From an uncultured Lentisphaerota bacterium (lineage in GTDB: Bacteria > Verrucomicrobiota > Kiritimatiellia > RFP12 > UBA1067): a DNA stretch of 64,000 nt. The position numbers and the translations under genes are program-made. Positions 17,525 through 32,664 of the stretch are shown here, in pieces (position 1 is the stretch's first letter; every line of letters begins with the position of its first letter). The DNA is taken from assembly GCA_946413265.1 (NCBI GenBank), contig CAMKJU010000003.1, positions 9,087 to 73,086 on the forward strand, in the 5' to 3' direction. The notes below the pieces were generated by a model, which did no database searches, was not told the origin of the DNA, and was given only the letters and a program-made list of their open reading frames with translations.

Positions 17525-17547
17525 ACAACAAGCGGACAACAGCAAGG
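17524..17547 (+). repeat. 24-nt motif copy (variant aACAaCAAGCGGACAACAGCAAGG) starting at the stop codon of 17270..17524
   Basis: Read directly from the sequence. Followed by AAAAGGAACCGAAG and the ATG at 17562. Confidence 0.85.
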
Positions 17548-17561
17548 AAAAGGAACCGAAG

Positions 17562-19058
17562 ATGAAACAGGAAAAGCCGCACAAGTTCTACGTCGGCGAG
17601 GGGTACGGCATCTGGGAGATGGACGGCGAAACCCACCGCCGCTTCCCCGACGTGTTCTACCGCGCGAAGCCCGGCGACTCGGCCGGCAAGTACACGATCG
17701 GCGACATGGCCGTCATGAACCAGCCGACAACCAAGAAGCGGTTCGGCATGTTCGTGATCGCGAACGTGGAGAGCGGCGACTTCGGCGGCACGGGGCTGAA
17801 GTACAAGCTCACGGTGCATCCCTACGGGACTCCGGAGGAGATCAGCGGACCGAAGCCCGCCGCCCCGATACAGCAAGCGGACAACAGCAAGGAAAAGGAA
17901 CCGAAGATGAACACTGCCAGTGGCGGACGGTGCAGATTCACAGATGAAAATGGATTCTGCACGAACGAAAACATGCAGGGCGGCGGATTCCGGTGCTTCG
18001 GCGCAGGGTGCGAATGCAGGGAGCCGATTCGCGGACCGAAGCCCGCCGCCCCGATACAGCAAGCGGACAACAGCAAGAAAGAACCGAAGATGAAAAGACC
18101 TACCTACAAGATGCAGCGCATCAAGCTCGCGGACTGCAAACCACACGCCGACGCGGAGGCCTACTCGGCCTCCACCGAGGACCGCGCCGCACTCGGCAAC
18201 TCAATCGAGGAGACCGGGGTGCTTTCGCCGATCGCCGTGGTGCCGGACGAGGACAGCAAGCGTACAACAGCAAGCAACGACGCCGAACCCCAGAAGTGGT
18301 TCGTGATCGACGGCATCGGGCGCATGAACGCCCTCATCGCCGCCGGCGAGACCGAGACCGACGCCCAGGTTTTCGACCTCGGCGATCTGAGCGTGGCCGA
18401 GTTCGTGGTGTGCAAGAACGCCATGATGCGCAAGGTCACAACCGGCACGCGCGTGATGGCATACCTGAAATGCCATGAACGCGAAGTACTGGCCGCTGCG
18501 GACCCGGAGAAGTACCAGGGCCGTAAAGAAAGCAAGTGGCGCAACAAGGTGGCTGCGGTTTCACGTGAAACCGCAGCCGACGAAAAGGGTTGGGGCGCGA
18601 AGGAGATAGCGGAGCGCATCGGGGTGTCGAAGAACGACGTGCTGGCGGGGATTGAGCTGCTGAAGGAGGTGAGCGGGGAGACAGAAAGCGTACAACAGCA
18701 AGGGAAGTACGTGCAGCTGGACCTCTTCGAGACGATGGACTCGGTGATGCACGGCGAGACGCCGATCAGGCGGTGGAAGGCGGCGGCGAGCGGCAAGGTG
18801 AGCAAGGTGGGCGGCAAGGCGGCCGCCGACTACGTGGGCATCGGCGCGCGCACGATGGTGAGCCTCATCGGGCTGTTCGAGAACTGGCAGACGGTCCCGA
18901 TGGAGAGCCGCGGGCCCATCGTCGAGCGGTTCAAGCTGGCGTTGGAGGCCGCGCCGGAGGATTTCAGGGCGGTGCTGGAGGATGTGGTTGGATCTCACGC
19001 AGAGGCGCAGAGAGGCAGAGAGCGCAGAGGGAAGTTCCGCAAAGGGACGCGGTGGTAG
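17562..19058 (+). CDS. ParB-like nuclease-domain protein with two stop-less N-terminal modules (candidate internal starts at 17907 and 18090)
   Basis: C-terminal part IKLADCKPHADAEAY...LGNSIEETGVLSPIAVVP...WFVIDGIGRMNALIAAG follows a ParB/Srx-like pattern. The modules are joined by the repeated GPKPAAPIQQADNSK(E)KEPKM linker. Confidence 0.65.
   Translation: MKQEKPHKFYVGEGYGIWEMDGETHRRFPDVFYRAKPGDSAGKYTIGDMAVMNQPTTKKRFGMFVIANVESGDFGGTGLKYKLTVHPYGTPEEISGPKPAAPIQQADNSKEKEPKMNTASGGRCRFTDENGFCTNENMQGGGFRCFGAGCECREPIRGPKPAAPIQQADNSKKEPKMKRPTYKMQRIKLADCKPHADAEAYSASTEDRAALGNSIEETGVLSPIAVVPDEDSKRTTASNDAEPQKWFVIDGIGRMNALIAAGETETDAQVFDLGDLSVAEFVVCKNAMMRKVTTGTRVMAYLKCHEREVLAAADPEKYQGRKESKWRNKVAAVSRETAADEKGWGAKEIAERIGVSKNDVLAGIELLKEVSGETESVQQQGKYVQLDLFETMDSVMHGETPIRRWKAAASGKVSKVGGKAAADYVGIGARTMVSLIGLFENWQTVPMESRGPIVERFKLALEAAPEDFRAVLEDVVGSHAEAQRGRERRGKFRKGTRW
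17847..17909 (+). repeat. extended ~60-nt unit (GGACCGAAGCCCGCCGCCCCGATACAGCAAGCGGACAACAGCAAGGAAAAGGAACCGAAGATG), copy 1
   Basis: Contains the 24-nt motif core at 17869..17892 plus an SD-like AAGGAAAAGGAA and an in-frame ATG. Confidence 0.9.
18033..18092 (+). repeat. extended ~60-nt unit, copy 2 (3-nt shorter)
   Basis: Motif core at 18055..18077. Ends in an ATG that starts the ParB-like module. Confidence 0.9.
18252..18274 (+). repeat. 24-nt motif copy, in CDS frame 1 (DSKRTTAS)
   Basis: Exact GACAGCAAGCGTACAACAGCAAG. Confidence 0.95.
18680..18703 (+). repeat. 24-nt motif copy (GACAGaAAGCGTACAACAGCAAGG), in CDS frame 2 (TESVQQQG)
   Basis: One mismatch to the consensus. Confidence 0.9.
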
Positions 19059-19082: not shown

Positions 19083-20816
19083 ATGACCATGGAAAAGGCT
19101 GCGGAGAGATCGGCGAAGGTCGGCGAGGTGCGGCGGCTCGTGGCGGAGGGCGCGACGCTGGACGCCGCGCTGCTGGCGGCGGGGGTGAGCGAGACCACCT
19201 ACCGCCGCTGGGCGGCGAAATTCGACGCGGGCGGCGTTGCGGCGCTCTCGGACGCGCCGAAGAGCGGGCGGCCGCCGGTGGTGAAGCTCGACGAGGACGA
19301 GAAGAAGTGCCTGCGGCGCATCTACCTCCAGTCGAACCGGGCGGAGCGCAGCGGCTCGATGACGATGGCGGCGCGGATCGCGGCGCACGACCCGGCGACG
19401 TGCCTCCGGCCCGAGACGCGGGCGGCGATCCTCGCGGAGCGCTCCTCGAAGCACCACCTTCCGGTGGAGGTGCGCCGGGCGATGCGCGAGGTGTCGCCGG
19501 TGGCGGTGGCGCGTTACCGCGACCCGCGCGAGGGGCAGAACAACGGCATCTACGTGCCGGGGTGGCTGCGGCGCGACGAGGAGACGGGGCGGTTGCTGCT
19601 GCCGGGCGAGCGGCAGGTGTGGGACGACGCGAGCGTGAACGTGGCGGTGGCGGTGCCGTGGGCGGGGCGCGGGGACAAGGCGGGCGACCGCTGGGGATGG
19701 CGCGCGGCGCGCTACCAGCTGCTCGCCGGGATCGACTGCGCGACGGACTTCTTCTGCGGGTTCGGCTACGTGATGCGCACGAGCGACGGGTACCGGGCGT
19801 GCGACGTCGCGAACGTGATGCACGAGGTGTGGCGTCAGCAGGGGTACATGCCGAAGAAGGTGGTGCTGGAGGGCGGCAGCTGGCAGGCGAAGCCGACGAT
19901 GGACTTCCTGCGCACGGCGGGCGTGGGGGTGGTGGACGCCAAGGGCCGGCCGAACCAGAAGCTGGTGGAGAACTACTTCAACCGCCTCTGGACGGCGCTC
20001 TCGATCTTCCTTCCGGGCTACGGGCAGATCGGGCGGTACCGTGGCGAGATGCGCAAGGAGAACCTGAACTGGATGAAGGTGCTGAGCGGGAGCGCGGATC
20101 CGAGGAAATACTTCCCGACGCTGAAGACGTTTCTGGAGGCGCTGAACAAGGCCGTCGCCTACCTCAGGTGGGAGAAGGTGGAGAGCCGGATCTACGGGAC
20201 GTGGAGTCCGGAGGAGCTGTACCAGGGCGCGGCGGCGAACGGTCTGCCGCTCGTGGAGGGTCTGGAGCGGTACGCGATGCCGGTGGCGGCGCGCCGGACG
20301 CTGCGTCGCGGCGGGATGGTGTTCGTGACGGCGGAGACGCAGCTGGAGGGACTCAGGCACGAGTACGCCTTCGCGACGCGGGACGGCTGGAAGTACGACG
20401 GCGCGCCGGTGGTGGTGCGCTTCGACCCGGTGACGGCGGCGGCGCGGGGGGCGTCGATCGAGCTTGCCCAGGCGTGGCGCGACTTCCGCGCGGGGACGGT
20501 GATCGACGGCGCGGCGCCGTGCGTGAGCGCGCCTCCGGACTTCGTGAACGACGCGGGGCTTTGGGACCTGCGCGGCGCGGGCCGCCACGAGCAGCGGGCG
20601 AACCGCGCGGCGGTGCGCACGGTGGTGACGGCCTACGACACGCGCGGGCCGGTGCGGACGAGGTTCGAGGACGGCGAGGAGAAGGGCTGGGGGCTGCGCG
20701 GCGGCGTGCCCGCGGCGGCGGAGGCGCCGGAAGCGGCGGAGGAATGCGACAGCAAGCGTACGACAGCAAGGCTTGCGGCCCTGGAGGCGGAGGAGCGGAT
20801 GCTGGCCTACGCGTGA
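19083..20816 (+). CDS. Mu-like DDE transposase (MuA analogue)
   Basis: N-terminal HTH (GVSETTYRRWAAKFDAGGVAALSD). Candidate DDE residues in VWDDASVNV, LAGIDCATDFF and VVLEGGSWQ. Positioned upstream of the MuB-like ATPase. Confidence 0.8.
   Translation: MTMEKAAERSAKVGEVRRLVAEGATLDAALLAAGVSETTYRRWAAKFDAGGVAALSDAPKSGRPPVVKLDEDEKKCLRRIYLQSNRAERSGSMTMAARIAAHDPATCLRPETRAAILAERSSKHHLPVEVRRAMREVSPVAVARYRDPREGQNNGIYVPGWLRRDEETGRLLLPGERQVWDDASVNVAVAVPWAGRGDKAGDRWGWRAARYQLLAGIDCATDFFCGFGYVMRTSDGYRACDVANVMHEVWRQQGYMPKKVVLEGGSWQAKPTMDFLRTAGVGVVDAKGRPNQKLVENYFNRLWTALSIFLPGYGQIGRYRGEMRKENLNWMKVLSGSADPRKYFPTLKTFLEALNKAVAYLRWEKVESRIYGTWSPEELYQGAAANGLPLVEGLERYAMPVAARRTLRRGGMVFVTAETQLEGLRHEYAFATRDGWKYDGAPVVVRFDPVTAAARGASIELAQAWRDFRAGTVIDGAAPCVSAPPDFVNDAGLWDLRGAGRHEQRANRAAVRTVVTAYDTRGPVRTRFEDGEEKGWGLRGGVPAAAEAPEAAEECDSKRTTARLAALEAEERMLAYA
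20748..20771 (+). repeat. 24-nt motif copy in the transposase 3' region (CDSKRTTAR)
   Basis: GACAGCAAGCGTACGACAGCAAGG. Confidence 0.95.
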
Positions 20817-20890
20817 CCATTTCCCCGCGCGGAGAGGCTAGGACGCTCCGCGCGGGGGATTCAACAACCAACAAACCAAAGGAGCACAAG

Positions 20891-21070
20891 ATGCACACAG
20901 CAAGCAGAGAATGGGCGGACCGGGTGGCCGCCCGGAACGCGGTGGAGACCGCGAAGGCGCGCGCCGACGAGGCGCGAAAAAACGAGGCGCTTGCCGCGCA
21001 GGGCTTTCTGCCCCTCACCTACGGGGAGCAGCTGATCCCGCTGAGCGCAGCCGGGAAGGAGGCGGAGTGA
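20891..21070 (+). CDS. small hypothetical protein (59 aa)
   Basis: AAAGGAG RBS with an A/C-rich leader. Stop overlaps the next start. Confidence 0.45.
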   Translation: MHTASREWADRVAARNAVETAKARADEARKNEALAAQGFLPLTYGEQLIPLSAAGKEAE

Positions 21071-21408
21071 TGAAGAGAACGAAAGATGACGGTAACCGCC
21101 TTTCACAGTTGCTCGGTTCAATCAAGCGAGCCAGGACAACCGTGTTGGGCAGTACGGCCCAAATAGTCAAACTAGGTGAATGCGAGGATTCCCAGGCCAT
21201 TACTGCATTGAACAGAGCCGCCGTAAAATGCCTGCATCAGTCATGCTACTGGCTTGATCAGGCCGTGGATACACTTGAGCATTCGATCAAGAGAGTCAGA
21301 GAGACGGAAGATGCGGACAGCAAGCGTACTACAGCAAGGGTGCAGCCGCTTTCGCCGGAGGCGGAGCTTGCGGCCACGGTGGCGCGGCAGAAGGGAGAGA
21401 ATGCATGA
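21070..21408 (+). CDS. hypothetical early protein
   Basis: ATG overlaps the upstream TGA. Contains a motif copy read as DSKRTTAR. Confidence 0.5.
   Translation: MKRTKDDGNRLSQLLGSIKRARTTVLGSTAQIVKLGECEDSQAITALNRAAVKCLHQSCYWLDQAVDTLEHSIKRVRETEDADSKRTTARVQPLSPEAELAATVARQKGENA
21316..21339 (+). repeat. 24-nt motif copy (GACAGCAAGCGTACTACAGCAAGG)
   Basis: Read directly from the sequence. Confidence 0.9.
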
Positions 21409-21491
21409 GCGGGGACGAGATCATATTCTTCGTGTGGCTGGCCACGTGGCTGCCGTTCGCGATCGCCTACTTCATCAGCGAGGCGAAGTGA
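21405..21491 (+). CDS. tiny membrane peptide (28 aa)
   Basis: IIFFVWLATWLPFAIAYFI. Overlaps the upstream stop. Confidence 0.3.
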   Translation: MSGDEIIFFVWLATWLPFAIAYFISEAK

Positions 21492-21512
21492 CAGCAAGAA
21501 GAAGGAGCAAGC
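21490..21512 (+). repeat. decayed motif copy (GACAGCAAGaagaaggAGCAAGc) filling the gap before the MuB-like ATG
   Basis: Both outer ACAGCAAG/AGCAAG halves are retained. The upstream stop TGA overlaps the first bases, as at 27789. Confidence 0.6.
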
Positions 21513-22463
21513 ATGAAGAACCAAGTGGAAAACGAACTGGTGGAGACAGCCGCGAAGATCGCGGCGTGGGGCGAGTCGCACGGCATGAGCCGCGCGCAGC
21601 TCGTGCGCAACTTCACCGACCTCGGCAGCGAGAAGAGCTTCCGCGACATCTCGGCCGGGAACCTGGAGGGCTACAACGCGGAGAACCAGCTCACGAAGTA
21701 CCGGGCGGTGTACGCCACGATGGAGGAGCTGGCGAACCAGGGCGGCGAGGAGCGCATCTACGACGACCTCGGCACCGTGGTGAAGATCCGCAGGGCGTTC
21801 CTGGGCGTGGTGAAGGCCACGGGCACGAATCGCGTGCTGATCGTGCAGGGCGAAAGCGGCGTGGGGAAGACCACCGCCGTGGGCCTCCTGCGCGGCAAGT
21901 ACGGCACGGGGCGCATCAGCTACGTGGAGGCGAGCGACGTGTGGGCGGACTCGCCCAACGCCTTCCTCGGCGCGATCCTGCGCGCGCTCGGCGTCACGGA
22001 GCTGCCGGCTGGGCGCGTGCAGCGTCTGGAGGAGGTGCAGGCGCGGCTTGCGATCTCGCGGCGGTGTCTCGTGATCGACGAGGCGCACCACCTCGGCCCG
22101 CACTGCCTCAACACGGTGAAGACGCTGGTGAACACGACGCCGGGGGAGTTCATCCTGGTGGCGATCCCGACCTTGTGGAACAAGCTGCAGGCGCACGCCT
22201 ACCAGGAGGCGAAGCAGATCGCGACGAACCGTCTCTCGGAGCGCGTGAAGCTCACGCTCGACGAGGCGGACATCCGCACGTACCTCTCGAAGCGGTTCAA
22301 GGACGCCCAGCCGGCGGAGCTTAAGGTTGCGGCGAAGATCATCCGCCCCAACGCGCTCCTCGCGGGCAACTACGCCTTCGTGCGCGACGTGGCGCGCGAG
22401 CTCGCCTCGCTCGAGGCCGACGCGGTGAGCCGCGCGGTGACGGCGGTGACGGGGAGAAGGTAG
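21513..22463 (+). CDS. MuB-like AAA+ DNA transposition ATPase
   Basis: Walker A GESGVGKTT and Walker B LVIDEAHHL. Downstream of the transposase. Confidence 0.8.
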   Translation: MKNQVENELVETAAKIAAWGESHGMSRAQLVRNFTDLGSEKSFRDISAGNLEGYNAENQLTKYRAVYATMEELANQGGEERIYDDLGTVVKIRRAFLGVVKATGTNRVLIVQGESGVGKTTAVGLLRGKYGTGRISYVEASDVWADSPNAFLGAILRALGVTELPAGRVQRLEEVQARLAISRRCLVIDEAHHLGPHCLNTVKTLVNTTPGEFILVAIPTLWNKLQAHAYQEAKQIATNRLSERVKLTLDEADIRTYLSKRFKDAQPAELKVAAKIIRPNALLAGNYAFVRDVARELASLEADAVSRAVTAVTGRR

Positions 22464-22512: not shown

Positions 22513-23199
22513 ATGGCAAAGCAAGTGACGACGATGCGCGACTCGAACGGGAACGACGTCCCGCTCAAGTACGTGAGCAAGTACGACAAGGCGAAGGACA
22601 AGGCCGTGCGCAAGGTGCTGGCCCGGTTCCTCCGCGCGCGGGAGCTGCTGGAGGGCGTGGTCGCCGAGACCATCGCCGAGCTGGAAGCGCTCGCGGACAC
22701 GAAGGAGAAGCTTGGCGCGAAGGGAAACTTCTCGGCGCGCAGCTTCGACGGCCTCATCCAGGTGAGCATCCGGCAGCAGTACAACATCTTCCTCGACGAG
22801 CGCGTGGTGAAGGCGCGCGAGCTGATGCTCGGCTACGTGGAGAAGGTGCTGGCGAAGGTGGGCGGCAACGACGCGCAGGCGCTGCGGCTCATCGTGGCGG
22901 AGGCGTTCAAGGCGAACGCGCAGGGCTTCCTCTCGACGGGGAAGATCATGTCGCTGCTCCGGATGGAGATCGACAACGCCGACTGGCGCGAGGCGAAGAG
23001 GATCCTCCAGGATTCGATCAAGCCGCAGAAGGGAAAGCGGTATCTCGTGTGCGAGCGGCGCGCGAGCACGCAGGCGGAGTTCCGCCCGGTGCGGCTGGAC
23101 ATCGCGGATTGCTGGCCGGAGGAGGATGAGAGTGTAAAGTGTAAAATGGAAAGTGTAAAATGCGAAGAGCAGAAAGGAGGTGATCAAGATGCCGGTTAA
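22513..23199 (+). CDS. DUF3164-like Mu-family protein
   Basis: MRDSNGNDVP...GAKGNFSARSFDGLIQVSIRQQYNIFLDERV is colinear with the DUF3164 pattern. Confidence 0.65.
   Translation: MAKQVTTMRDSNGNDVPLKYVSKYDKAKDKAVRKVLARFLRARELLEGVVAETIAELEALADTKEKLGAKGNFSARSFDGLIQVSIRQQYNIFLDERVVKARELMLGYVEKVLAKVGGNDAQALRLIVAEAFKANAQGFLSTGKIMSLLRMEIDNADWREAKRILQDSIKPQKGKRYLVCERRASTQAEFRPVRLDIADCWPEEDESVKCKMESVKCEEQKGGDQDAG
23132..23162 (+). repeat. second (GTGTAAA)n array, inside the 3' end of the DUF3164-like CDS
   Basis: gtgtaaagtgtaaaatggaaagtgtaaaatg is translated as SVKCKMESVKC. Confidence 0.85.
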
Positions 23200-23386
23200 G
23201 TGGACAAGGCCGAAGAAGGCCGAAGACAGCAAGCGCACGACAGCAAGTGCGCCGAAGCCCGAGAAGCCGAAGGGCGACAAGCCCCAGGCCGAAGAGCTGA
23301 AGCCCGAGAAGCCGAAGGGCGGCAAGCCGAAAGGCGGCAAGCCGAAAGGCGACGATAAGCCCAATGGCAAGAAGGAGGCCAAGTGA
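23189..23386 (+). CDS. small lysine-rich protein with KPKG repeats
   Basis: AAAGGAGG lies 8 nt upstream. PEKPKGDKP...PEKPKGGKPKGGKPKGDDKP. Confidence 0.5.
   Translation: MPVKWTRPKKAEDSKRTTASAPKPEKPKGDKPQAEELKPEKPKGGKPKGGKPKGDDKPNGKKEAK
23225..23247 (+). repeat. 24-nt motif copy (GACAGCAAGCGCACGACAGCAAG)
   Basis: Two mismatches to the consensus. Read as DSKRTTAS. Confidence 0.85.
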
Positions 23387-23985
23387 TGGCGAACGCCGTT
23401 GACAGGGCCGTGCGCGCGCAGGGCGGGGCCGTGGTCAAGCCGCACCAGGTGAAGGCCATGGTCCTCGCCGCGCGCCGCGCGTACAAGGTGCAGTCGGACG
23501 CCGGCCTCGTCGATGACGGGGTCGACTTCGACAGCTGGCGGCGGGCGACGCTCCACGACGTGGTGGGTGCCGCCGCGCCGGATTCCTTCCGGGCCGTGAC
23601 GCAGCGCGACTACGCCGCCGTGCTCGGCTACTTCAGCGAGCTCGCCGGAAATTCCGGAAAATCCGGAGATTCCGGAAAATCCGGGATCGCCGACGAACAG
23701 CGGCGGGCGCAGTGGTCGCTGGGACTTGTGGAGAGAGAAACGGCGGATGCCTTCGGCGGGCGCGAGGGGGCGCGGCGGTACGCCGACGCGCTCTTCGCGC
23801 GGATCCACAAGACCGACCGATACGCCGCCACGGCGAAGCAGACATGGGCGGTCATTTTCACCCTGCGGAACCGTGCCGCGAAAATCCGCTCAAAAACGGC
23901 CCTAGAAGCGCGGGGCGAGGCGGGGGTACACTCGCCGCTCCCCGCCGCTTCCAAGCGTTTTCCCGCGTTTTCCCGCGGCTTCTAG
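23383..23985 (+). CDS. GemA (Mu gp16)-like protein
   Basis: Called from position in the Mu order and the pattern ...DFDSWRRATLHDVVG...SFRAVTQRDYAAVLGYF. Contains an in-frame 9-nt x4 repeat (GNSGKSGDSGKSG). Confidence 0.4.
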   Translation: MMANAVDRAVRAQGGAVVKPHQVKAMVLAARRAYKVQSDAGLVDDGVDFDSWRRATLHDVVGAAAPDSFRAVTQRDYAAVLGYFSELAGNSGKSGDSGKSGIADEQRRAQWSLGLVERETADAFGGREGARRYADALFARIHKTDRYAATAKQTWAVIFTLRNRAAKIRSKTALEARGEAGVHSPLPAASKRFPAFSRGF

Positions 23986-24013: not shown

Positions 24014-24556
24014 ATGGTCGAAAACATGGTGCAGATGGACCTTTTCGGGGGTGAAAGGCCGGGCAAGCCCGGCCATCCGGACAACCTGGCGGGGTCGCAG
24101 ATTCCGCCGCCGCTTGCCGTGGAGCCGGAGCCGAACATGGTGCGCGTGGCGCCGGGGCGGCACGCCTGGGTGCCGAAGGACGCGGCGACGCCGCCGGACG
24201 CCTACGTGATGTGCCGGTGGTCGAAGCAGGAGGACGGCACCTACGCGCCGGTGCCGGTGGCGGGGCGGTACGTGCGGCTTGATTCCAGGACGGCCGCCCT
24301 TCTCGGCTTCCCGGCGCGCGCCGGCGAGGACGGCAACGAGCGCTGCCGCTACGACACGATCCTCCGCCTCGGGCGAGCGGGGTTCGTGGACGTGGTGCGC
24401 GTGGCGCCGAACACGATCCTCCTCGACCTCGACAGCTGGTACCGCCACCTCGCCGACTGCATGGACAACCCCGACCGCTGGAACGAGGGCGGAGAGGACC
24501 GCGAGACGTACCTTCAGGCAAACGGCCTCGGCGGGTGGAGGCGGTATGTCGAATGA
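24014..24556 (+). CDS. hypothetical phage protein
   Basis: Long ORF with normal composition in the operon. Confidence 0.5.
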   Translation: MVENMVQMDLFGGERPGKPGHPDNLAGSQIPPPLAVEPEPNMVRVAPGRHAWVPKDAATPPDAYVMCRWSKQEDGTYAPVPVAGRYVRLDSRTAALLGFPARAGEDGNERCRYDTILRLGRAGFVDVVRVAPNTILLDLDSWYRHLADCMDNPDRWNEGGEDRETYLQANGLGGWRRYVE

Positions 24557-24723
24557 ATTGCAATTGGCGGCCTGGGCCATGGAAAATCAGGAAATGGGGA
24601 AGCCGAGGGCGTGCGCACGCCGCAGGCCGTGAATCCGTGGCGCAAGCGGGGACGCGCTCGAATACTACCAGCAAACCGTGGCGCTCCGGAAAGACGGAGA
24701 ATTTGCTATACTAGGAGACACCG

Positions 24724-25980
24724 ATGACAGCGAACCTGACAATAGAGACATTCCCGAACGAGGCGGCCGCGGACTACATCCACGGCAAGGCCGTCGCGGA
24801 TCCAACGCACTTCGGCAACCTTCCGCCGCAGCTGAAGCAGCGCGCGTTCACGGTGGCGGGCATCGAGCAGCTGGACGCGCTGCAGCGCATCCGCGACGCG
24901 GTGGCGAAGCTTCCGGAGGGCGCGAGCTGGGACGAGGCGAAGAAGGAGATCGCCGCCGAGATCTCGCCGTTCGTGGGCGGCGACGACAAGGCGGCGAAGG
25001 CCCGGGCGAACTTCATGCTTCGCACGCACGGCTTCCAGGCGTATGCGGTTGCGCGGCACCAGCAGCAGATGGAGGACATCGAGATTTTTCCGTACTGGAA
25101 GTACGAGACGGTGGGCGATTCGCGGGTGCGTCCCGGACACGCCGCGCTCGACGGGAAGATACTAAGGGCCGACGATGACTGGTGGAAGACCCACTACCCG
25201 CCATGGGACTGGGGATGCCGGTGCATCGTGATCGAACTGACCGAACTGGACGCGAAGAAGCAGGGCATTACGCCTCCAGAGGAAATGCCCACGCCGGGAC
25301 GGAGCGAGAGCTTTGCGTTCGATCCAACGAACGCGGCGATCGACCTCGACAGATACCGCAAGGACCCAAGGTTTGAGGACGACGCAGACTGGCGGCTCAA
25401 ATTCGTGACGCCCGCGAAGAACGTGACCGTGCAGACCGACGACGGCGGCACCATGTCGATGTGGGATCTCTGCCTGAAGACGCAGACGGCCCGCGTTTCC
25501 AGTAACATCGCAGGAATGAGCCGGACGGACTCGGTCGAATACTTCTCGGTAATATCCCGCAAGACCGGCGTGACAGAGGCGACGATCCAGGGCACGGCGG
25601 AGGAGGTGAATTTCAACGTTGACAAGCTCAAGTACGGTGACTACATCACAATACACACGCACCTTAAGGGCGGCAATATCCCTTCAGCTGCCGACATGGC
25701 GACATATCGGACGCGGTTCGACGGCGAAGACGCGAACACGCCCTCATGGGACTACGTCGTGGCCGTTCCAAAGGCAGCAGGTATTGTGCCGCGCGCCAGG
25801 CTCATCGTGACGAAGGGGCGCATCCCAGACACAGACATGAAGGTACTCGAGCAGATCAACCGGCGTCTTGCGGCGGCCAGGGAGAGCGATCGGATGGCGA
25901 TACTCAAAGAATACACCGACAAGCTCGACGAGCTTGAAAGCAAGGGGCTCATCGAATACAAGGAAACGAAAGGAGTGTGA
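24724..25980 (+). CDS. MuF-like minor head protein fused to a C-terminal JAB/JAMM metalloprotease-like domain
   Basis: MuF/SPP1-gp7 core at aa 95-175 (YETVGDSRVRPGHAALDGKIL...WDWGCRC). C-terminal IHTHLKGGNIPSAAD matches HxHx7Sx2D exactly (nt 25654..25695), with an upstream Glu in SVEYF. Confidence 0.75.
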   Translation: MTANLTIETFPNEAAADYIHGKAVADPTHFGNLPPQLKQRAFTVAGIEQLDALQRIRDAVAKLPEGASWDEAKKEIAAEISPFVGGDDKAAKARANFMLRTHGFQAYAVARHQQQMEDIEIFPYWKYETVGDSRVRPGHAALDGKILRADDDWWKTHYPPWDWGCRCIVIELTELDAKKQGITPPEEMPTPGRSESFAFDPTNAAIDLDRYRKDPRFEDDADWRLKFVTPAKNVTVQTDDGGTMSMWDLCLKTQTARVSSNIAGMSRTDSVEYFSVISRKTGVTEATIQGTAEEVNFNVDKLKYGDYITIHTHLKGGNIPSAADMATYRTRFDGEDANTPSWDYVVAVPKAAGIVPRARLIVTKGRIPDTDMKVLEQINRRLAAARESDRMAILKEYTDKLDELESKGLIEYKETKGV

Positions 25981-25982
25981 CC

Positions 25983-26183
25983 ATGACAAGGGAAGAGGCC
26001 AAAGAACAGCTGGTGGGGCTTATGGCGTACAACTACGACATGACTGGCTCCGAGCCCGACTATGCGACGGTGTGGAACCGCATACAGGATCTGACGGACT
26101 TCATCTGGTACCATCAGCCGGATCCCGGCGAATGGGAGTTGCCGGAAGGGTACAAGGCGTTTTTGGAGAGGGCCAGGGCATGA
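25983..26183 (+). CDS. hypothetical head-module protein
   Basis: AAAGGAG RBS. Tightly packed between the MuF and gpG-like genes. Confidence 0.5.
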   Translation: MTREEAKEQLVGLMAYNYDMTGSEPDYATVWNRIQDLTDFIWYHQPDPGEWELPEGYKAFLERARA

Positions 26184-26632
26184 TCACGGTCACGATAGAC
26201 ACCTCGAACCTTACGTGGAAGCTCGCGGACTTCCCGGAAGCGCTTGCACGGGCGCAGCGGAACGCGCTGAAGGTCATCGGCAACGTCGTAAAGAACCACA
26301 CGACGGAGGCATTCAGGGATCCCAACTACAGGCCGTCGCCGTGGGCTCCGCGCAAGGACAAAAAGGCGACGCATCAGCTGCTGATCAAGAGCGGAGACCT
26401 TCGGCGAAACTTCCGATCCGTGGTGACGGGGCCGGACACCGTGGTGGTGGGCACGAAGGTGAAGTATGCAGGCTACCACCAGTTCGGCACGAAGCACATG
26501 CCGGCGCGGCCTTTCTTCCCGATCGATGAACACGGGCAGCTCACGCCGACGGTGATGCGCGACATAAAAGACAATGTCGAGGCAATCTACAAAAAGGAGA
26601 TCGACAAGGTATTCGGGAACGGGGGCGGCTGA
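26180..26632 (+). CDS. Mu gpG-like virion morphogenesis protein
   Basis: LLIKSGDLRRNF...VVGTKVKYAGYHQFGTKHMPARPFF is typical of this family. Confidence 0.75.
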   Translation: MITVTIDTSNLTWKLADFPEALARAQRNALKVIGNVVKNHTTEAFRDPNYRPSPWAPRKDKKATHQLLIKSGDLRRNFRSVVTGPDTVVVGTKVKYAGYHQFGTKHMPARPFFPIDEHGQLTPTVMRDIKDNVEAIYKKEIDKVFGNGGG

Positions 26633-26658: not shown

Positions 26659-26701
26659 CTAACTGATGATATAAACACTTCCTTTTTCAGTGCCGCACAG
26701 T

Positions 26702-26733
26702 CCGCACGGGCGCAAGCCCGCGCGGCGTTTTTT
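26702..26733 (+). terminator. rho-independent terminator
   Basis: CCGCACGGGC-GCAA-GCCCGCGCGG (10-bp stem, 1 mismatch) followed by CGTTTTTTAT. Confidence 0.7.
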
Positions 26734-26752
26734 ATATAAACTGTGCGCCGTT

Positions 26753-27790
26753 ATGGGCAAGCCAGACAAAGTGATACTTCTTCGCACAACCGGCGTCGCC
26801 GTGAGCCTTTCGGCTGACGCGGCGAAGCTGCCGCGCCGGATCAAGGTGCTGAACTGGGGCGACAACCCGAACTGCCACGGGAAGCGCGTGAACGTGGGCG
26901 CGCTCTTCGTGAAGTGCCTGAACGCCGACACCTATCCCTACCGCAAGGTGGCGCTCGACTTCGAGCACAACACCTTCCCCGGCACGGCGGCGTACAAGGA
27001 GTCGAAGGAGCCGCGTCCCGTCGCGGGCTTCGGCACGATCGAGGCCGTCGAGGGCGACGGCGTGTACATCACGATGTCGAGCTGGACTCCGGACGGCGAG
27101 AAGATGGCGGCGAACTACGCCGACGTCTCGGCCGGGGCCGTGACCGACAAGGAAGGCAACCTCGTGGCCGTGGCGAGCGTGGCGCTGTGCCGCGCCGGCG
27201 CGGTGGACGGCATGGATTTCGTGGAGGCGCCGCTGAGTGGCGGTATCTCTTCCGCGCTGAGCGGAATCATCAACAACCAGGAAGGCGGGCTGAAGCCCGC
27301 CGCTCCGATACAGAAAGGAAATGCAATGGACTACAAGGCATTGCTATTGAAGCTGCTGGGGCTTGGCGAGGACGCCACGGACGAGGCCATTCAGGCCGCG
27401 CTCGATGCGGCCGGCAAGAAGCCCACGCAGGAGGAACAGGACGCGGCACTATCGGCTGCGGTGAAGACTGCTGTCGCGGAGGCCGTGAAGCCGATCGAGG
27501 AGAAGGTGGCCGCGCTTTCGGCGGCAGCCGTCGCCCACGAGAAGGCCGACCTCATCGCCGAGGCCGCCCGCGAGGGCAAGGTGATCGCGCTCGGCGCGGA
27601 CGCCATCGGGAAGATCACGGTCGAAGACCTGAAAGCCACGATCGCGAAGACGCCCGTGACGGTGCCGCTCAACGCGAAGACGCCGACGAACATGAAGGAG
27701 AATGCCGCCGAGGGCGATGTGCCCGAGGAGCTGCGCCAGATCGCGCTCAACTGCGGGGTGAGCCCGGATATCTTCAAAGCGGGGAAGTGA
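26753..27790 (+). CDS. Mu gpI-like head protease with nested scaffold (internal start at 27326)
   Basis: The RIKVLNWGDNPN...VALDFEHN pattern matches the Mu-like prophage I protein. The C-terminal Ala/Glu-rich helical part begins at MDYKALLLKLLGL, after an SD-like AAAGGAAA. Confidence 0.8.
   Translation: MGKPDKVILLRTTGVAVSLSADAAKLPRRIKVLNWGDNPNCHGKRVNVGALFVKCLNADTYPYRKVALDFEHNTFPGTAAYKESKEPRPVAGFGTIEAVEGDGVYITMSSWTPDGEKMAANYADVSAGAVTDKEGNLVAVASVALCRAGAVDGMDFVEAPLSGGISSALSGIINNQEGGLKPAAPIQKGNAMDYKALLLKLLGLGEDATDEAIQAALDAAGKKPTQEEQDAALSAAVKTAVAEAVKPIEEKVAALSAAAVAHEKADLIAEAAREGKVIALGADAIGKITVEDLKATIAKTPVTVPLNAKTPTNMKENAAEGDVPEELRQIALNCGVSPDIFKAGK
27292..27313 (+). repeat. copy of the 5' half of the extended unit (GAAGCCCGCCGCTCCGATACAG) before the nested scaffold start
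   Basis: Matches 17852..17873 and 18038..18059. Translated as KPAAPIQ. Confidence 0.8.
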
Positions 27791-27823: not shown

Positions 27824-28264
27824 ATGAAAAAACTGATTGCAATGGCCGCGATGGCGGCAATGGCGCTCGCGGCATTCGCGGGCGAGCACGACACGCCGCA
27901 GGTGAGCGGCGACTACGCCCAGCTCGCGGCGGGCGAGGCGGTCTACGCCGGCAACATCGCAGCCGTGGGCACGAACGGCTGCGCCTACGCGGTGAACACC
28001 TCCGCCGTTGGCGGCACGCTCACCGTGTGCGGGGTGTTCCTGCACAACGCGGCGAAAGGCGAGAACGTGACGGTGAAGCGCGGGGGATTCATCCTCGAGA
28101 ACGCGACCGGCGCCGGCGCGATCGCGAAGAAGGACATCGGCGCGACGGCCTACTCCGTGGCGACGAACCCCTGGACCGTGACCAAGACGAGCGGCACGAA
28201 GACCGTCGGCAAGGTGGCCGACGTGCGCGACGACGGCAAGGTCGTGGTGGTGGTTGGCCGGTAG
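27824..28264 (+). CDS. DUF2190-like head protein (decoration or auxiliary) with signal-peptide-like N-terminus
   Basis: Lies between the scaffold and the major capsid. Gly/Ala/Val-rich beta pattern. N-terminus MKKLIAMAAMAAMALAAFAG. Confidence 0.5.
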   Translation: MKKLIAMAAMAAMALAAFAGEHDTPQVSGDYAQLAAGEAVYAGNIAAVGTNGCAYAVNTSAVGGTLTVCGVFLHNAAKGENVTVKRGGFILENATGAGAIAKKDIGATAYSVATNPWTVTKTSGTKTVGKVADVRDDGKVVVVVGR

Positions 28265-28309: not shown

Positions 28310-29248
28310 ATGAACATCACTGCAGCAACCCTGGACGCGCTCTTCAAGACGTTCCAGACCAAATTCACCGAGGCGCAGAAGGCCGCGCAGACGCGCGTGA
28401 CGCCGAACGACCTCCTTCCCGAGGACATCGCCCTCGCCTTCACCGGCGCGGGCTCCGCCACGCAGCACAGCTGGCTCGAGCAGCTGCACGGCATCCACGA
28501 GTGGGTGGGCGAGCGCGTCTTGAACAACGCGAAGCTCGGCAAGCTCACGGTCGTGAACCGCGACTTCGAGAACACGATCAAGGTCTCGCGCAACGAGATC
28601 GAGGACGACCAGTACGGCGTCTACGCGCCGCTGGTGGGCATGATGGGCGCGGACGCCGAGAACCTGTGGAAGAAGCTCGCGATCGAAGCGCTCCTCGGGA
28701 ACGGCGAGTGGGCGGACGGCAACCCGTTCTTCTGCTCGGGCCGCGTGCTCGGGGAGAGCACGTTCACGAACGCGGTGACGACCTCCTTCAGCAAGGCCGC
28801 CGTCGAGGCCGCCATCGCGGCGATGCGCGGCTGGAAGCTCTACGGCGGCGAGCCGGGCGAGATCCGCCCGGACGTGCTCCTCGTGGGCCCGTCGCTCGAG
28901 GCGGCGGCCAAACTGATCTGCGAAGCCGACCTCGTGGCGGACAGCGGCACGACGGTGAGCAACGTGAGCCCGGCGAAGGCGCTGAAGGTGCGCGTGTCGC
29001 AGTCGCTCGTGGGAGACCACGCGAACGAGTGGTACGTGCTCGGCGACAAGAACGGCGTGAAGGCCGTGGGCATCCAGAAGCGCAAGCTGCCGGTGCTGAC
29101 GCGCAAGGACCGCGACGAGGACACGAACGTGTTCATGACGAACGACTTCCTCTACGGCGTCCACGCGCGCGGCGAGGGCTTCCTGACTCTTCCGTTCCTC
29201 GCCTACAAGGGCGGCGCGGCGGCCGTGGCAGCCTGGGAGGAGAAGTAA
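28310..29248 (+). CDS. Mu gpT-like major capsid protein
   Basis: HSWLEQLHGIHEWVGERV...VVNRDFENTIKVSRNEIEDDQYGVY is characteristic of the gpT family. Confidence 0.9.
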   Translation: MNITAATLDALFKTFQTKFTEAQKAAQTRVTPNDLLPEDIALAFTGAGSATQHSWLEQLHGIHEWVGERVLNNAKLGKLTVVNRDFENTIKVSRNEIEDDQYGVYAPLVGMMGADAENLWKKLAIEALLGNGEWADGNPFFCSGRVLGESTFTNAVTTSFSKAAVEAAIAAMRGWKLYGGEPGEIRPDVLLVGPSLEAAAKLICEADLVADSGTTVSNVSPAKALKVRVSQSLVGDHANEWYVLGDKNGVKAVGIQKRKLPVLTRKDRDEDTNVFMTNDFLYGVHARGEGFLTLPFLAYKGGAAAVAAWEEK

Positions 29249-29254
29249 GGCTCC

Positions 29255-29650
29255 ATGACGAGGCTGACGATAGACGACCTGACCGGCGACATGCCGGAGC
29301 AGAAGCTTATCGAGGCACTCGACGACGACCAGGACGGCTTCGCCGACGAGAAGGCCTTCGCCGCGGCGCTCGCATCCGCGAACGCCCGCGCCGAGGCCAT
29401 CTTCGGCGGGGCCGTGCCGGTCCAGTACTCATCGTCGGCGGACTACGCCGTGAGGGTGTTCCTGCTGGACATCCTCTACCGACGTCGCGGCGTGGCCGAC
29501 GACTCAAACCCGTGGGCGAAGCTGGCGGATGAGCAGGAGGCGCGCCTTCGGGCGCTCGCCTCCGGCACCGAGGCCATCGACGCCACCACGGACGGCGTGA
29601 TCATCTCGAAGCCCGCGAAGATCTACAACTCGCTGGGGGTGCTGTCGTGA
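29255..29650 (+). CDS. Mu gp36-like head-tail connector protein (DUF1320-like)
   Basis: Called from position after the capsid gene and the N-terminal pattern LTIDDL...LIEALDDD. Confidence 0.55.
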   Translation: MTRLTIDDLTGDMPEQKLIEALDDDQDGFADEKAFAAALASANARAEAIFGGAVPVQYSSSADYAVRVFLLDILYRRRGVADDSNPWAKLADEQEARLRALASGTEAIDATTDGVIISKPAKIYNSLGVLS

Positions 29651-30120
29651 TCGCGGCCGAGCTGGAGAAAAAAATCTGCGCGGCGCTGGTGGATGCGCTC
29701 GGCGCGGTGGGGGCGGCGCGGCGGCCGGTGATCCGCGGACGCTGGCGCGACGCCTCCGAAGGGAGGTCCGGCCCCGAGCTGCAGCCGGTTGGGACGCTCG
29801 TCGAGGTCTCCGTGGGCCTGCCGGCTTACGAACGGTTCATGCTCAACAAGGCGACGCTGGCCGTGCGCGTGACGACGTGGTTCAGGAGCGCGTCGGCAGG
29901 AGCGGCGGCGACGACGGTGATTCCGATGACCGAGGCGCTCTGCGGCCTTGTGGGCGAGTGGCAGATGGACGCCGAACGCCTTGAAGCCGATCTCGGCTTC
30001 GGGAAATTCCGGCCCTTCGCGCTGCGCGCCGCCGGCGGCAATGCGCCGACGGAGACGGCAGATGGCATGAGCATCACGCACGATTTCACCGTCACGGGCC
30101 TTACGGGCCGTGGCGAATAA
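29647..30120 (+). CDS. head-tail joining protein (hypothetical)
   Basis: 4-nt overlap with the upstream gene. Called from operon context. Confidence 0.5.
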   Translation: MIAAELEKKICAALVDALGAVGAARRPVIRGRWRDASEGRSGPELQPVGTLVEVSVGLPAYERFMLNKATLAVRVTTWFRSASAGAAATTVIPMTEALCGLVGEWQMDAERLEADLGFGKFRPFALRAAGGNAPTETADGMSITHDFTVTGLTGRGE

Positions 30121-30148
30121 ACAGGCAAGCAAGAAAGGAAACTGTAAA

Positions 30149-30523
30149 ATGTCAGCAATGGAACACAAACTGGGGACGCAGCTCGCGACCGGCGCGACCG
30201 CTAGCCCCGTGCCCAAGACCCACTCGCAGACGGCGCGGCGAGCTGCTGGCGGCGAGCTGCGGATCATCCACGACGAGACGGGCGCGGACCTCGCGGTGTA
30301 CGTGACGGATCCGCACAGCGAACAGTCGTTCGAGGCGGTGATGGAGGCGGACGCGGAAGACAAGGAGATCGGAGACCCTGTTACCGTAAACAATACGAAG
30401 TACGTCGTCACGCAGTGGGAAGTGAATGAAGTGAACGATGACGTCAAGCGCGTGAGCATCGGCCTGCGGACCGTTGACGCCACGCTCACCGTCCCGGGGG
30501 CCAGCACCAATACGAACACCTAA
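30149..30523 (+). CDS. putative major tail subunit
   Basis: Called from position before the chaperone-like gene and the tape measure. AAGAAAGGAAA RBS. Confidence 0.45.
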   Translation: MSAMEHKLGTQLATGATASPVPKTHSQTARRAAGGELRIIHDETGADLAVYVTDPHSEQSFEAVMEADAEDKEIGDPVTVNNTKYVVTQWEVNEVNDDVKRVSIGLRTVDATLTVPGASTNTNT

Positions 30524-30529
30524 GGCGCC

Positions 30530-31090
30530 GTGGAGATCCCGCACGAGAACTACCTTGCCGCGTTCCCGCAGCCGAGGGCTGCTGGGAACGTGACGCTGAA
30601 GCCGCTGACGCTGGCCGGGGCCATCCGGCTCGGCGAGCGCGGCGTGTCGCTCGTGCGGCGCGTCCCGCGCGGCCAGCTGGTGGAGGCGGCGTTCGTGCTT
30701 TCCGGCGAATCCGACCTCGAGCAGTTCTGCCGACGCGCGAAGTTCGGTCTTTCGGCGCTCTCGCGGGCGGTGGAGGCCGTCTTGAACGACGCCTTCGCCA
30801 CTTACGTGCGCCCTGCCGCGCCGAAGAACGCACGCCGCCACCTCACGCCTCACGGGCTCGGCTGGCCGCTGGAACTGGCGGAATGGCTGTGCGCGGAGTA
30901 CGGCTGGAGCTGGCGCGAGGCGCTGGAGACGCCCGTGGTGACCGTCCACGCGCTTGCGGCGGCGAGCCGTCAGCGGCGCGGCGTGCGCAACGCCGGGATG
31001 GACTACCTCGAGCGGCGGTACGTGGCCGACGCGAAGGCCGGGCGCGTGAAATGGTTCACCCTTGACAGCGGAAAGGAGGAGGCGGTATAA
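30530..31090 (+). CDS. putative tail assembly chaperone
   Basis: GTG start. Called from position between the tube and the tape measure. Confidence 0.4.
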   Translation: MEIPHENYLAAFPQPRAAGNVTLKPLTLAGAIRLGERGVSLVRRVPRGQLVEAAFVLSGESDLEQFCRRAKFGLSALSRAVEAVLNDAFATYVRPAAPKNARRHLTPHGLGWPLELAEWLCAEYGWSWREALETPVVTVHALAAASRQRRGVRNAGMDYLERRYVADAKAGRVKWFTLDSGKEEAV

Positions 31091-31212
31091 TGGCAGGCGT
31101 GAAAGACGACAAAGACTTTTTCGACGAGCTGTTCGACGTTGACGGAAAATGCATCTGCATTGTCCTCGCGGTCGTCGCCGTCGTTTTCGTCGTCTGCCTT
31201 GCGCTCGCCTAG
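31090..31212 (+). CDS. tiny membrane peptide (40 aa)
   Basis: CICIVLAVVAVVFVVCLALA. ATG overlaps the upstream TAA. Confidence 0.3.
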   Translation: MAGVKDDKDFFDELFDVDGKCICIVLAVVAVVFVVCLALA

Positions 31213-31227
31213 CGTGCCGCCGCCGAC

Positions 31228-32652
31228 ATGGCGGACGGGGACGGATCAGATGTGAAGATCAGGGTCTCGGCCGACACAAGACAGGCCGAAGGCGCAGTGA
31301 AGCGCCTGCAGGGCGTGTTCGCCACGGCTGCGCGCGGCATCGGCGCGTTCACGAAGGCGATGGGCGTGGTGGGCTTCGCGATCAGCGGGATACAGGCCGT
31401 CGTGGGCGCGTTCAAGTCGCTCCACGAATGGGTCACGAAGGGAGGCGAGGCCGCGAAGCAAATGCGCCGCGAGCTGGAGCAGACGCGGTACGAGCGAGGC
31501 GTGGAGAACGCCGCGAAGGCCTACAAGGAACTCAACGCCGAGATTGAGCGCACGATCCGCCTTGAGAAGGAGCGCGCCGCGATAAAGGCCCGGCAGACCT
31601 CGAACCGGCGCGACGCGGAGGACGCAAGGCTGGAGCTGGCGAAGCAGAAGGAGATCGCCGCGCTGGACCCGGCGTCCGAGGACTACGGCAGGCGCAAGCG
31701 CGAGATCGAGGACAAATACGCGGCCAAGGCCGCGAACACTGCGGCTGCGCGGACGAAGGAGGACCGTGGCGCGGAGGCGGAGGGACTGCGGAAGGAGCTC
31801 GCCGAGAAGGAGCGCCAGATTGCCGGGCAGAAGGCGAGCCGCGACGCCGACATCAAGGAGGCCGACGCCGCGAAGCGCGAAATCGAGCAGCGGAAGAAGG
31901 GCCGCGCATGGCTCGACGCCATGGGACCGCTTGGAGGCGACAAGCGCGAGGAGAACGAGGAGCGGATAAAGACGCTCGAAAAGCGGGAGAAGGCGGCGCG
32001 GAACCGCGCGGAAAGCAAGGCGGAGGCGATCCAGGCGGCGGAGGACGCCGCCGCGATCCTGCGCGAGAAGATCGAAGTCGTCTTCGGCGATGTCGAGGGC
32101 GCGAAGACGCGCGCCGAGGCGACAAGGCAGTCCATCGCCCAGGGCGCGCGGGAGCGTGCGGCGGAAGAAGCGCGGAGCAAGAAGGCGAAGGAGGAAGCCG
32201 ACGCGAAGAAGGCCGCGTCCGAGGCGAAAGAGGCGGAGTCCAATCGGCTGGAGCTGGCGAAGCAGGAGAAAATCAGGGCGTTGGACATTTACGACCCCGA
32301 CTACGAGAAGAAACGGAAGCAAATCGAGCGCGACCATGCTTATGAGGCTGCGGGCCTTGCGGACACCGAAGAGGAGAGGGAGTCCCAACGGCTGGCGGTC
32401 GTGAACGAGATCGCCGCCGAGGAGTCCGCCAAACACCGGCAGAACCGCGAGTCCTTCGCCGAACGGATGGCGGCGACGGAGGGAGTGAGCCAGAACAGGC
32501 TCACCGCGCTGGGGCTCGGCAGCGGCGTGGAGGGCCGTTCCGGAATAGCGGGCGACGTGAAGAAGATCGTGGACCTTCTGAAGGAGGAGATCGCCGCCGT
32601 GAAGGACAACAAGCCGGAACGCACGGACGGCGTGGCGATAGTTGGCGAGTGA
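31228..32652 (+). CDS. tail tape measure protein
   Basis: N-terminal membrane-like GIGAFTKAMGVVGFAISGIQAVVGAF, then a long Ala/Glu/Lys/Arg coiled coil. Confidence 0.75.
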   Translation: MADGDGSDVKIRVSADTRQAEGAVKRLQGVFATAARGIGAFTKAMGVVGFAISGIQAVVGAFKSLHEWVTKGGEAAKQMRRELEQTRYERGVENAAKAYKELNAEIERTIRLEKERAAIKARQTSNRRDAEDARLELAKQKEIAALDPASEDYGRRKREIEDKYAAKAANTAAARTKEDRGAEAEGLRKELAEKERQIAGQKASRDADIKEADAAKREIEQRKKGRAWLDAMGPLGGDKREENEERIKTLEKREKAARNRAESKAEAIQAAEDAAAILREKIEVVFGDVEGAKTRAEATRQSIAQGARERAAEEARSKKAKEEADAKKAASEAKEAESNRLELAKQEKIRALDIYDPDYEKKRKQIERDHAYEAAGLADTEEERESQRLAVVNEIAAEESAKHRQNRESFAERMAATEGVSQNRLTALGLGSGVEGRSGIAGDVKKIVDLLKEEIAAVKDNKPERTDGVAIVGE

Positions 32653-32664
32653 GGAGTATAGACC

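Follow-up and report, generated by a model that had tools for sequence, protein, structure and literature searches.

A MuF minor head protein with a predicted JAB/JAMM module and a co-varying small partner in a Mu-like prophage of a gut Kiritimatiellia bacterium

Introduction

The MuF domain of phage minor head proteins is a carrier of effector domains (PMC3482391, Zhang et al. 2012; PMC5512222, Iyer et al. 2017), and the cargo published for it comprises nucleases, HExxH metallopeptidases, ADP-ribosyltransferases (ART), RelA/SpoT and others (PMC3482391, PMC5576092, PMC5512222). Here we describe a gene of this kind, MuF-JAB, in a 64,000-nucleotide (nt) stretch of contig CAMKJU010000003.1 (positions 9,087 to 73,086; hereafter the window) from an uncultured Lentisphaerota bacterium. 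The gene sits in a Mu-like transposable prophage of this gut Kiritimatiellia bacterium, and its product joins a MuF scaffold to a divergent, predicted JAB-superfamily domain, followed by a short open reading frame (ORF) that is exchanged together with it. Fusions of MuF to effectors have been published before, as have JAB toxin modules (Tox-JAB-1, -2) and the RadC domains of phage polyvalent proteins, and the statement of an initial annotation of this DNA that MuF proteins carry C-terminal effector or toxin domains agrees with the literature (PMC3482391, PMC5512222, PMC5576092). A MuF-JAB fusion is not named in the main texts and some supplements of the MuF literature searched, and is partly foreshadowed by public precomputed Pfam labels combining PF14464 with PF04233 and by two viral ‘minor capsid proteins’ that share the fold.

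The closest described systems are the MuF polymorphic toxins and effectors (PMC3482391, PMC5576092 Jamet 2017, PMC5512222), which resemble the present locus in their PF04233 N-terminus and variable enzymatic C-terminus, in a small (<150 amino acids, aa) ORF directly downstream, in their location within a prophage head module and in module replacement at a fixed junction. The locus differs from them in its JAB cargo, in its Kiritimatiellia/Verrucomicrobiota host and in an effector role that is, here, putative. RadC-like JABs (PF04002; 2qlc; phage and plasmid polyvalent proteins) share the E...HxHPxGxxxPSxxD signature, the compact core and the association with invasive elements, whereas the present module lies below the Pfam RadC threshold, has a shorter link between the second strand and the HxH strand, carries a C-terminal two-helix extension plus a final strand and has MuF, not HhH, ArdC or a helicase, as its fusion partner.

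JABs linked to ubiquitin-like proteins (Ubl; PF14464: Cap3, Bil/Bub, CysO/QbsE-processing and archaeal JAMM1/Rpn11-like enzymes) have the same catalytic motif, and this family is both the best Pfam match of the relatives of MuF-JAB and the source of a weak profile match to 6fjv. The module departs from them in its mostly sub-gathering scores, in its fusion to a virion protein and in that no adjacent Ubl, E1 or E2 gene was found; among the ORFs scanned, its neighbours are phage early and head genes and not a Cap3, Bil or Bub operon. Tox-JAB-1 and Tox-JAB-2 toxins likewise use a JAB as C-terminal toxin module with a cognate downstream protein, Tox-JAB-2 having the signature ‘E, H[ST]H, S, D’ (PMC3482391). 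They are borne on RHS, type VI or type VII secretion system (T6SS, T7SS) scaffolds and not on MuF, and no DUF4329 (Tox-JAB-2) match was found by Pfam in any of 116 relatives. Phage lambda gpK combines JAB and NlpC/P60 domains in a gene of the tail module beside the Ubl-like gpI, and is thus a further JAB domain encoded among phage structural genes. MuF-JAB differs in its head-module location, its MuF fusion and the lack of a detected Ubl neighbour; it has no Pfam match to NlpC/P60, and a Lambda_tail_I match in P0001 (E=0.084) was discarded as noise.

Architecture and catalytic motif of MuF-JAB

The gene, its parts and its small downstream partner are laid out as follows (coordinates are those of the window).

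24724..25980, plus strand: MuF-JAB gene, a 418-aa ORF with Pfam Phage_Mu_F (PF04233) and PHROG 220
24724..25476, plus strand: conserved MuF scaffold, aa 1-251, with the junction motif TMSMWDLCL at its end (alignment of 15 MuF proteins)
25477..25977, plus strand: exchangeable C-terminal module, aa ~252-418, assigned to JAB (Prok-JAB matches of relatives, hhalign, AlphaFold2 model, fold matches)
25537..25539, plus strand: E272, the Glu predicted to be catalytic, at a beta-strand's N-terminus (invariance; modelled strand 272-278)
25654..25695, plus strand: H311-x-H313-x7-S321-x2-D324, predicted zinc ligands and oxyanion Ser (motif, invariance, model)
25983..26183, plus strand: small partner ORF (ATG with Shine-Dalgarno sequence; conserved in relatives)
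25363..26166, plus strand: swapped cassette of scaffold end, JAB module and small ORF (DNA identity between the window and the related locus L003)

Pfam PF04233 (Phage_Mu_F) matches aa 63-170 (E=9e-23; 81.6 bits, the cutoff being 29.6), and aa 9-194 match PHROG 220, ‘minor head protein and DNA pilot’ (E=1.6e-46). The MuF core recognized by the initial annotation is therefore borne out by Pfam, but its boundary at aa 175 is not: the conserved part reaches aa ~243-251, where the scaffold ends, in 15 MuF proteins of related phages, with a conserved T-(V/M)-W-(D/E)-(W/L)-(L/C) motif (window aa 243-251).

The C-terminal extension had also been credited with a JAB/JAMM signature within 25517..25980, which corresponds to aa 265-418 and the stop codon. 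The motif HTHLKGGNIPSAAD starts at residue 311 and fits H-x-H-x7-S-x2-D exactly, with E272 lying 39 residues upstream, so that H311, H313, S321, D324 and the Glu are all present as described; the peptide IHTHLKGGNIPSAAD, an exact JAMM pattern, is found in the ORF at 24724..25980. The pattern occurs once across the six reading frames of the whole window. Composition alone would yield ~0.35 matches by chance across the six translated frames and 0.0005 within the MuF-JAB protein, so the motif alone is weak evidence and gains its significance from the conservation of the catalytic residues among relatives.

Sequence evidence for a divergent JAB domain

A first homologue search with the C-terminus alone returned three proteins, and a profile built from these recovered at least 308, nearly all of 390-430 aa with a MuF domain, several of which already carry the precomputed PF14464 (Prok-JAB) and PF04233 annotation. 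In an alignment of 116 relatives, E272, H311, H313, S321 and D324 are invariant. The initial annotation had named conservation of the His and Asp residues among homologues as a point on which its reading could fail, and these residues, together with the Glu, proved to be unvarying; the JAB catalytic set is intact and under strong purifying selection. This is exemplified by a divergent alignment of 21 sequences only 14-28% identical to the window protein, in which six columns are invariant, five being the catalytic residues and the sixth V295.

Prok-JAB (PF14464) is matched by 102 of the 116 relatives at E<=0.01, with a best value of 1e-5, and RadC (PF04002) by four at the same threshold. Two homologues scored individually against Prok-JAB reached 21.9 and 22.6 bits, under the 25-bit cutoff; for RadC the window protein gave no match and two homologue C-termini 15.2 and 16.4 bits, with a cutoff of 22.1. 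The module falls between the Prok-JAB and RadC models and belongs to neither by curated threshold. The window protein itself is of a minority subtype (8 of the 116) in which Leu replaces Pro after the HTH of the catalytic motif and which carries a 23-residue insertion, and for this reason it lacks a Pfam JAB match of its own; its C-terminus likewise had no PHROG or PDB sequence match, and the whole protein none to PDB sequences.

An exhaustive HMMER scan of 1.8 billion representatives retrieved only 24 clusters. Among them are additional MuF fusions whose HxH-to-S loop measures 6-8 residues and, as the sole named non-MuF family, one bona fide RadC (PF04002 match at E=2e-39) that the profile hit at E=3.6e-4. 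Alignment of the family profile with RadC by hhalign gave a probability of 92% (E=5.5e-7), with the Glu strand and the HxH..S..D motif aligned. Against PDB sequences the family profile was non-significant, with Rpn11-like 6fjv at E=0.048 and RadC at 0.14 amid unrelated noise, and tblastn of the JAB module against 50,697 GenBank phage genomes gave no real match.

Predicted structure of the module

A fold search with the full-length model returned weak matches (E>=0.15), with Prp8 MPN domains on top and BubCD (9ea4) among the weak ones, after which aa 232-418 were modelled alone with AlphaFold2. The resulting domain model has a predicted local distance difference test (pLDDT) value of 87 and a predicted template modelling (pTM) score of 0.80. 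In it, E272 opens the strand 272-278, H311 and H313 close the next strand of the core (307-313), and S321 and D324 lie at the N-terminus of the helix after it (322-330). The placement follows the arrangement described for JAB and RadC domains, in which the Glu begins a strand, the His pair ends one and Ser/Asp begin a helix (PMC11981726).

Foldseek comparison of the domain model against PDB placed CSN5, BRCC36, RadC, AMSH/Sst2, Rpn11 and Prp8-MPN on top (E=0.017-0.1; template modelling (TM) scores 0.3-0.42), the highest target-normalized TM-score among the top matches, 0.42, being that of RadC 2qlc. Among the viral predicted structures of BFVD, nine matches had E<1e-3 (best 2e-6); two of these are ‘minor capsid proteins’ from uncultured siphoviruses, and phage proteins bearing RadC, MPN or JAB labels come next at E 3e-3 to 5e-2. 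The check for an MPN fold that the initial annotation had put forward thus yielded MPN, JAB and RadC folds as top matches, although as the weaker of the tests, no PDB match falling below E=0.017. Collectively, the invariance among the 116 relatives, their Prok-JAB matches, the hhalign result and the folds matched by the domain model agree in placing the C-terminal extension in the JAB/JAMM superfamily, as first proposed; no single test is decisive, and the module is predicted, from sequence and model, to be a divergent and active member with its catalytic residues intact.

Archaeal virus proteins also occur among the fold matches of the domain model, a protein of Acidianus rod-shaped virus 2 reaching E=2.5e-5 and the ATV structural protein ORF273 (PDB 4ats) matching weakly. 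The model comparison hints that some archaeal virion proteins share a JAB-like fold.

The JAB module and a small ORF form a swapped cassette

The partner ORF begins 2 nt past the MuF-JAB stop codon, and AAGGAG 7 nt upstream of its ATG provides its own Shine-Dalgarno sequence; its stop codon overlaps the gpG ATG at 26180. It encodes 66 aa from the most likely start, ATG 25983, or 68 aa if GTG 25977 is used. It is conserved in the related loci L001-L008 and L019, and in L027, L028 and L029 independent gene calling likewise gave a 66-aa gene. The 66-aa product has a conserved Pro-rich ‘DPGxWE..PEG’ tail and, for the window ORF, no Pfam or PHROG match. The ORF was considered as a Ubl substrate and rejected as such: the proteins are of 63-81 aa, match no Pfam family, lack a C-terminal Gly-Gly and end in PEGVEP or ...ERARA. 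One or more small ORFs lie between MuF and gpG in all 17 module-bearing loci and in none of the three module-less loci, where gpG follows MuF directly (gap -3 to +9 nt).

Comparison of the window with L003 delimits the exchange. DNA identity is 97-100% up to ~25360, drops to 32-50% over 25363-26166 and returns to 87-98% from the start of gpG; this low identity between near-identical flanks indicates that scaffold end, JAB module and small ORF were exchanged as one ~800-bp unit. Window-type JAB modules always occur with the window-type small ORF (window, L027, L029) and main-type modules with the main-type ORF (L001-L007), giving two JAB-plus-partner alleles ~27% identical on almost identical phage backbones. 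The co-variation of module and small ORF points to an effector that needs a neutralizing or chaperoning partner, since the JAB module travels with its cognate ORF as a swappable cassette.

Exchangeable modules at a fixed junction

The short MuF proteins of L010, L014 and L015 end 3-17 residues past the junction motif, and the others run on for 144-290 residues. These continuations are JAB variants, HExxH-motif modules (L009, L017, L020) or unrelated sequences (L011, L018). Since module-less sister phages keep the gpG, protease and capsid genes, head assembly does not require the module.

HExxH-motif modules occupy the same junction in L009 (10001-11689), L017 and L020, with motifs such as YHELMHWVHLH, and L009 and L020 have in common a related downstream ORF of ~80-92 aa, a second co-varying type of module and partner. 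L011 (10001-11569) and L018 carry two further unrelated modules of 234-290 aa, each followed by its own ~83-aa ORF; one contains a GQQDGHSGNYL segment reminiscent of kinase-like catalytic loops. Pfam gave no match for the HExxH-motif modules, the L009 and L011 modules or the small ORFs.

Proposed function and alternative explanations

On balance we lean towards MuF-JAB being a two-part virion protein whose MuF scaffold carries an exchangeable JAB cargo, silenced or chaperoned by the small partner and acting in the next host. By analogy with SPP1 gp7, Mu gpF and MuF toxins, the scaffold (aa 1-~251) would put a small number of copies at the portal within the capsid, from where they would exit with the DNA. 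The C-terminal cargo, a compact divergent JAB/JAMM protein by fold and residues, would be a zinc hydrolase with H311, H313 and D324 as predicted Zn ligands, E272 as general base and S321 as transition-state Ser. The cassette logic suggests that, inside the producing cell, the JAB module is bound by the 66-aa partner, which would serve as an inhibitor or immunity-like protein or as a chaperone; once in the next infected cell, the enzyme would act at an early stage on a host macromolecule. Our preferred substrate class is a protein or (iso)peptide bond, because all biochemically characterized JABs are (iso)peptidases and HExxH-motif modules stand at the same position in sister phages.

Several points weigh against this proposal. 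The JAB call rests on converging family-level evidence and not on matches of the window protein itself, for which Pfam gave no JAB match at E<=1, its C-terminus alone yielding HAAS noise, and no PDB fold match of the domain model was better than E=0.017. The module-less sample consists of three loci that are phylogenetically non-independent, and L012 (4001-5722) is an exception to the pairing of module and small ORF: between its short MuF and gpG stand three ORFs (121, 129 and 80 aa), perhaps cargo encoded separately, or morons. It is also conceivable that the small ORF is a head-assembly factor with no link to the module, caught by chance within the exchanged stretch. Among named relatives the nearest are RadC-like, and a nuclease role has been put forward for that group (PMC5512222, PMC3482391), which weakens the preference for a peptidase. 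Packaging, ejection, zinc binding, catalysis and partner binding are, for MuF-JAB, all inferred.

This RadC affinity is the starting point of the alternative to which we give most weight after the proposal above, rather unlikely as we hold it to be: a RadC-like JAB acting on nucleic acid or nucleotides, which would process DNA ends or host DNA/RNA at injection, or would serve as a nuclease toxin, as has been proposed for the Tox-JAB domains, with the small ORF as its immunity gene. RadC is the only named non-MuF family of the exhaustive profile search (E=3.6e-4), aligns at 92% by hhalign, has the highest target-normalized TM-score of the top PDB matches (2qlc, 0.42) and labels phage proteins in BFVD; Tox-JAB-1 and Tox-JAB-2 modules accompany immunity genes in polymorphic toxins (PMC3482391), and nucleases make up over half of the MuF toxins (PMC5576092). 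Experimental proof of nuclease activity, however, exists for no JAB or RadC domain (PMC11981726), the Pfam RadC model matches 4 of the 116 relatives as against 102 for Prok-JAB and DUF4329/Tox-JAB-2 none, and the HhH or helicase partners that gave rise to the nuclease proposal are missing from the module. The initial annotation had instead suggested an isopeptidase that, once ejected, strips Ubl conjugates of host defences at the start of infection, namely those of Bil/Bub or of Cap2 priming of the cyclase in the cyclic oligonucleotide-based antiphage signalling system (CBASS), and so disarms them. Cleavage after the C-terminus of a Ubl is common to all characterized JABs (PMC3482391; PMC11981726), MuF-JAB has an intact catalytic set, the relatives' best Pfam match is the model covering Ubl-linked prokaryotic JABs, BubCD (9ea4) appears among the weak matches of the full-length model, and virion delivery would suit an early-acting counter-defence. 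Yet no gene for a Ubl, an E1 (ThiF) or an E2 (UBC) was found in the prophage and flanking ORFs scanned, a scan that is incomplete and leaves aside the large ORFs at 1504..7020, 44098..49368 and 59116..63162; the nearest named relatives in the profile search, hhalign and viral folds are RadC-like, not Cap3- or Bil-like; a phage-borne anti-Ubl JAB was not found in the literature searched; and the idea does not predict a co-varying partner, for which a conjugate-removing enzyme has no obvious need. It thus finds no specific support here, and we regard it as improbable. The same low probability attaches to a variant in which such a virion-delivered isopeptidase would remove Bil/Bub-type tags from phage proteins that are incoming or being assembled, or undo Cap2-type priming of CBASS cyclases, and in which the 66-aa partner, with its Pro-rich tail, is a pseudo-substrate plug silencing it until ejection.

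Explanations confined to the virion itself fare no better. A morphogenetic or self-processing protease that trims MuF or head proteins during assembly, with no role in the next host, would accord with a position in the head module, with translational coupling to gpG through the small ORF and with the use of a JAB domain by lambda gpK in tail assembly, as the Pfam description of PF14464 also records; peptidase domains in polyvalent proteins have in addition been proposed as releasing proteases (PMC5512222). A dedicated Mu gpI-type head protease is present, however, and sister phages with orthologous, portal-independent head genes have a MuF without the module or with unrelated modules. Taken with the retention of the same head genes in module-less phages, the gpI protease makes a role in head maturation unlikely, and diversification by cassettes is typical of conflict genes, not of assembly enzymes. 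Processing of phage proteins, which the initial annotation had offered as its second option, is accordingly unlikely. Least probable of all is a catalytically dead structural or binding domain, comparable to the MPN-minus domains of Prp8 or Rpn8 or to the inactive PBECR of Mu gpF. The inactive Prp8 MPN domains do head the fold matches of the full-length model, and Mu gpF does have an inactive C-terminal domain (PMC5512222), but five of the six columns invariant at 14-28% identity are catalytic residues, and the motif is kept despite a loop that varies from 6 to 8 residues.

Relevance for phage effector biology

MuF proteins provide a general route by which temperate phages may carry enzymes into the next host cell, and the locus adds a predicted JAB-type zinc hydrolase, with a ready-made cognate partner, to the list of MuF cargo. 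What goes beyond the earlier finding is this small partner and the pair of naturally swapped JAB/partner alleles, which, divergent as they are on near-identical backbones, can be compared directly for specificity and neutralization. The compact, self-contained 167-aa module with its probable protein ligand is also a tractable entry to the activity of minimal prokaryotic and RadC-like JABs. Should the target be a ubiquitin-like conjugate, the locus would represent a new class of phage counter-defence and the first capsid-packaged anti-ubiquitin-like counter-defence enzyme in a phage. The setting is an uncultured host (rumen and gut Kiritimatiellia), and all that reaches beyond fold, residues and genetic architecture is inference.

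Prophage context

Eleven related loci in species-representative genomes, from Kiritimatiellia/Verrucomicrobiota metagenome-assembled genomes mostly of ruminant gut, show a conserved gene order. In the window, the prophage genes to the left of MuF-JAB are the following.

8082..9665, minus strand: Mu-type portal (PF06074 E=1.9e-60; PHROG 113)
9708..11855, minus strand: large terminase (PHROG 2 E=6.5e-15)
16173..16556, minus strand: helix-turn-helix (HTH) repressor
17508..19058: ParB-like gene, directly upstream of the transposase
19083..20816, plus strand: transposase, and 21513..22463, plus strand: MuB-like ATPase (PHROG 310, PHROG 296, AAA_22)
22513..23199: DUF3164 gene, after MuB
23383..23985 and 24014..24556: two genes labelled unknown

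The plus-strand interval 19083..22463 is the early region of a transposable phage, and the ParB-like and DUF3164 genes are kept across related Kiritimatiellia prophages. A defective element without packaging genes was considered and rejected, portal and terminase being present on the minus strand at 8-12 kb. These two genes lie to the left of the repressor, ~15 kb from the MuF, gpG, protease and capsid genes and in opposite orientation, a split head module that looks unusual; Mu itself has its terminase, portal and F genes side by side. The gap directly upstream of MuF-JAB (24557..24723) measures 167 nt in the window as against ~30-50 nt in L001-L005; an Rfam scan of 23-27 kb returned nothing relevant, the extra ~140 nt being without a match.

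Downstream of the partner ORF, the head genes continue.

26180..26632, plus strand: Mu gpG-like virion morphogenesis/neck gene (PHROG 26 E=6e-23; PF05069 on orthologues)
26690..27790, plus strand: Mu gpI-like head protease/scaffold gene (PF10123 E=2e-20)
27824..28264: decoration-like gene
28310..29248, plus strand: Mu gpT-like major head gene (PF10124 E=6.5e-45)

The locus L029 carries, between gpG and the head protease, a moron-like minus-strand gene of 200 aa (4906-5508) that is absent from the window. Ten ORFs of 131-707 aa were scanned within 29255..39374, downstream of the capsid gene; none has a PHROG match except for one weak tape-measure, and the six of them also searched against Pfam gave none. 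With current libraries, the tail module of these phages all but defies annotation. Host genes begin near 39.3 kb, and those of the flank include the following.

39335..40444: sigma-70-like gene
40861..42906: metallophosphoesterase
42962..44530: AAA_35 ATPase
52346..53938: AAA-ATPase_like with PDDEXK_9
55377..57293: secretin

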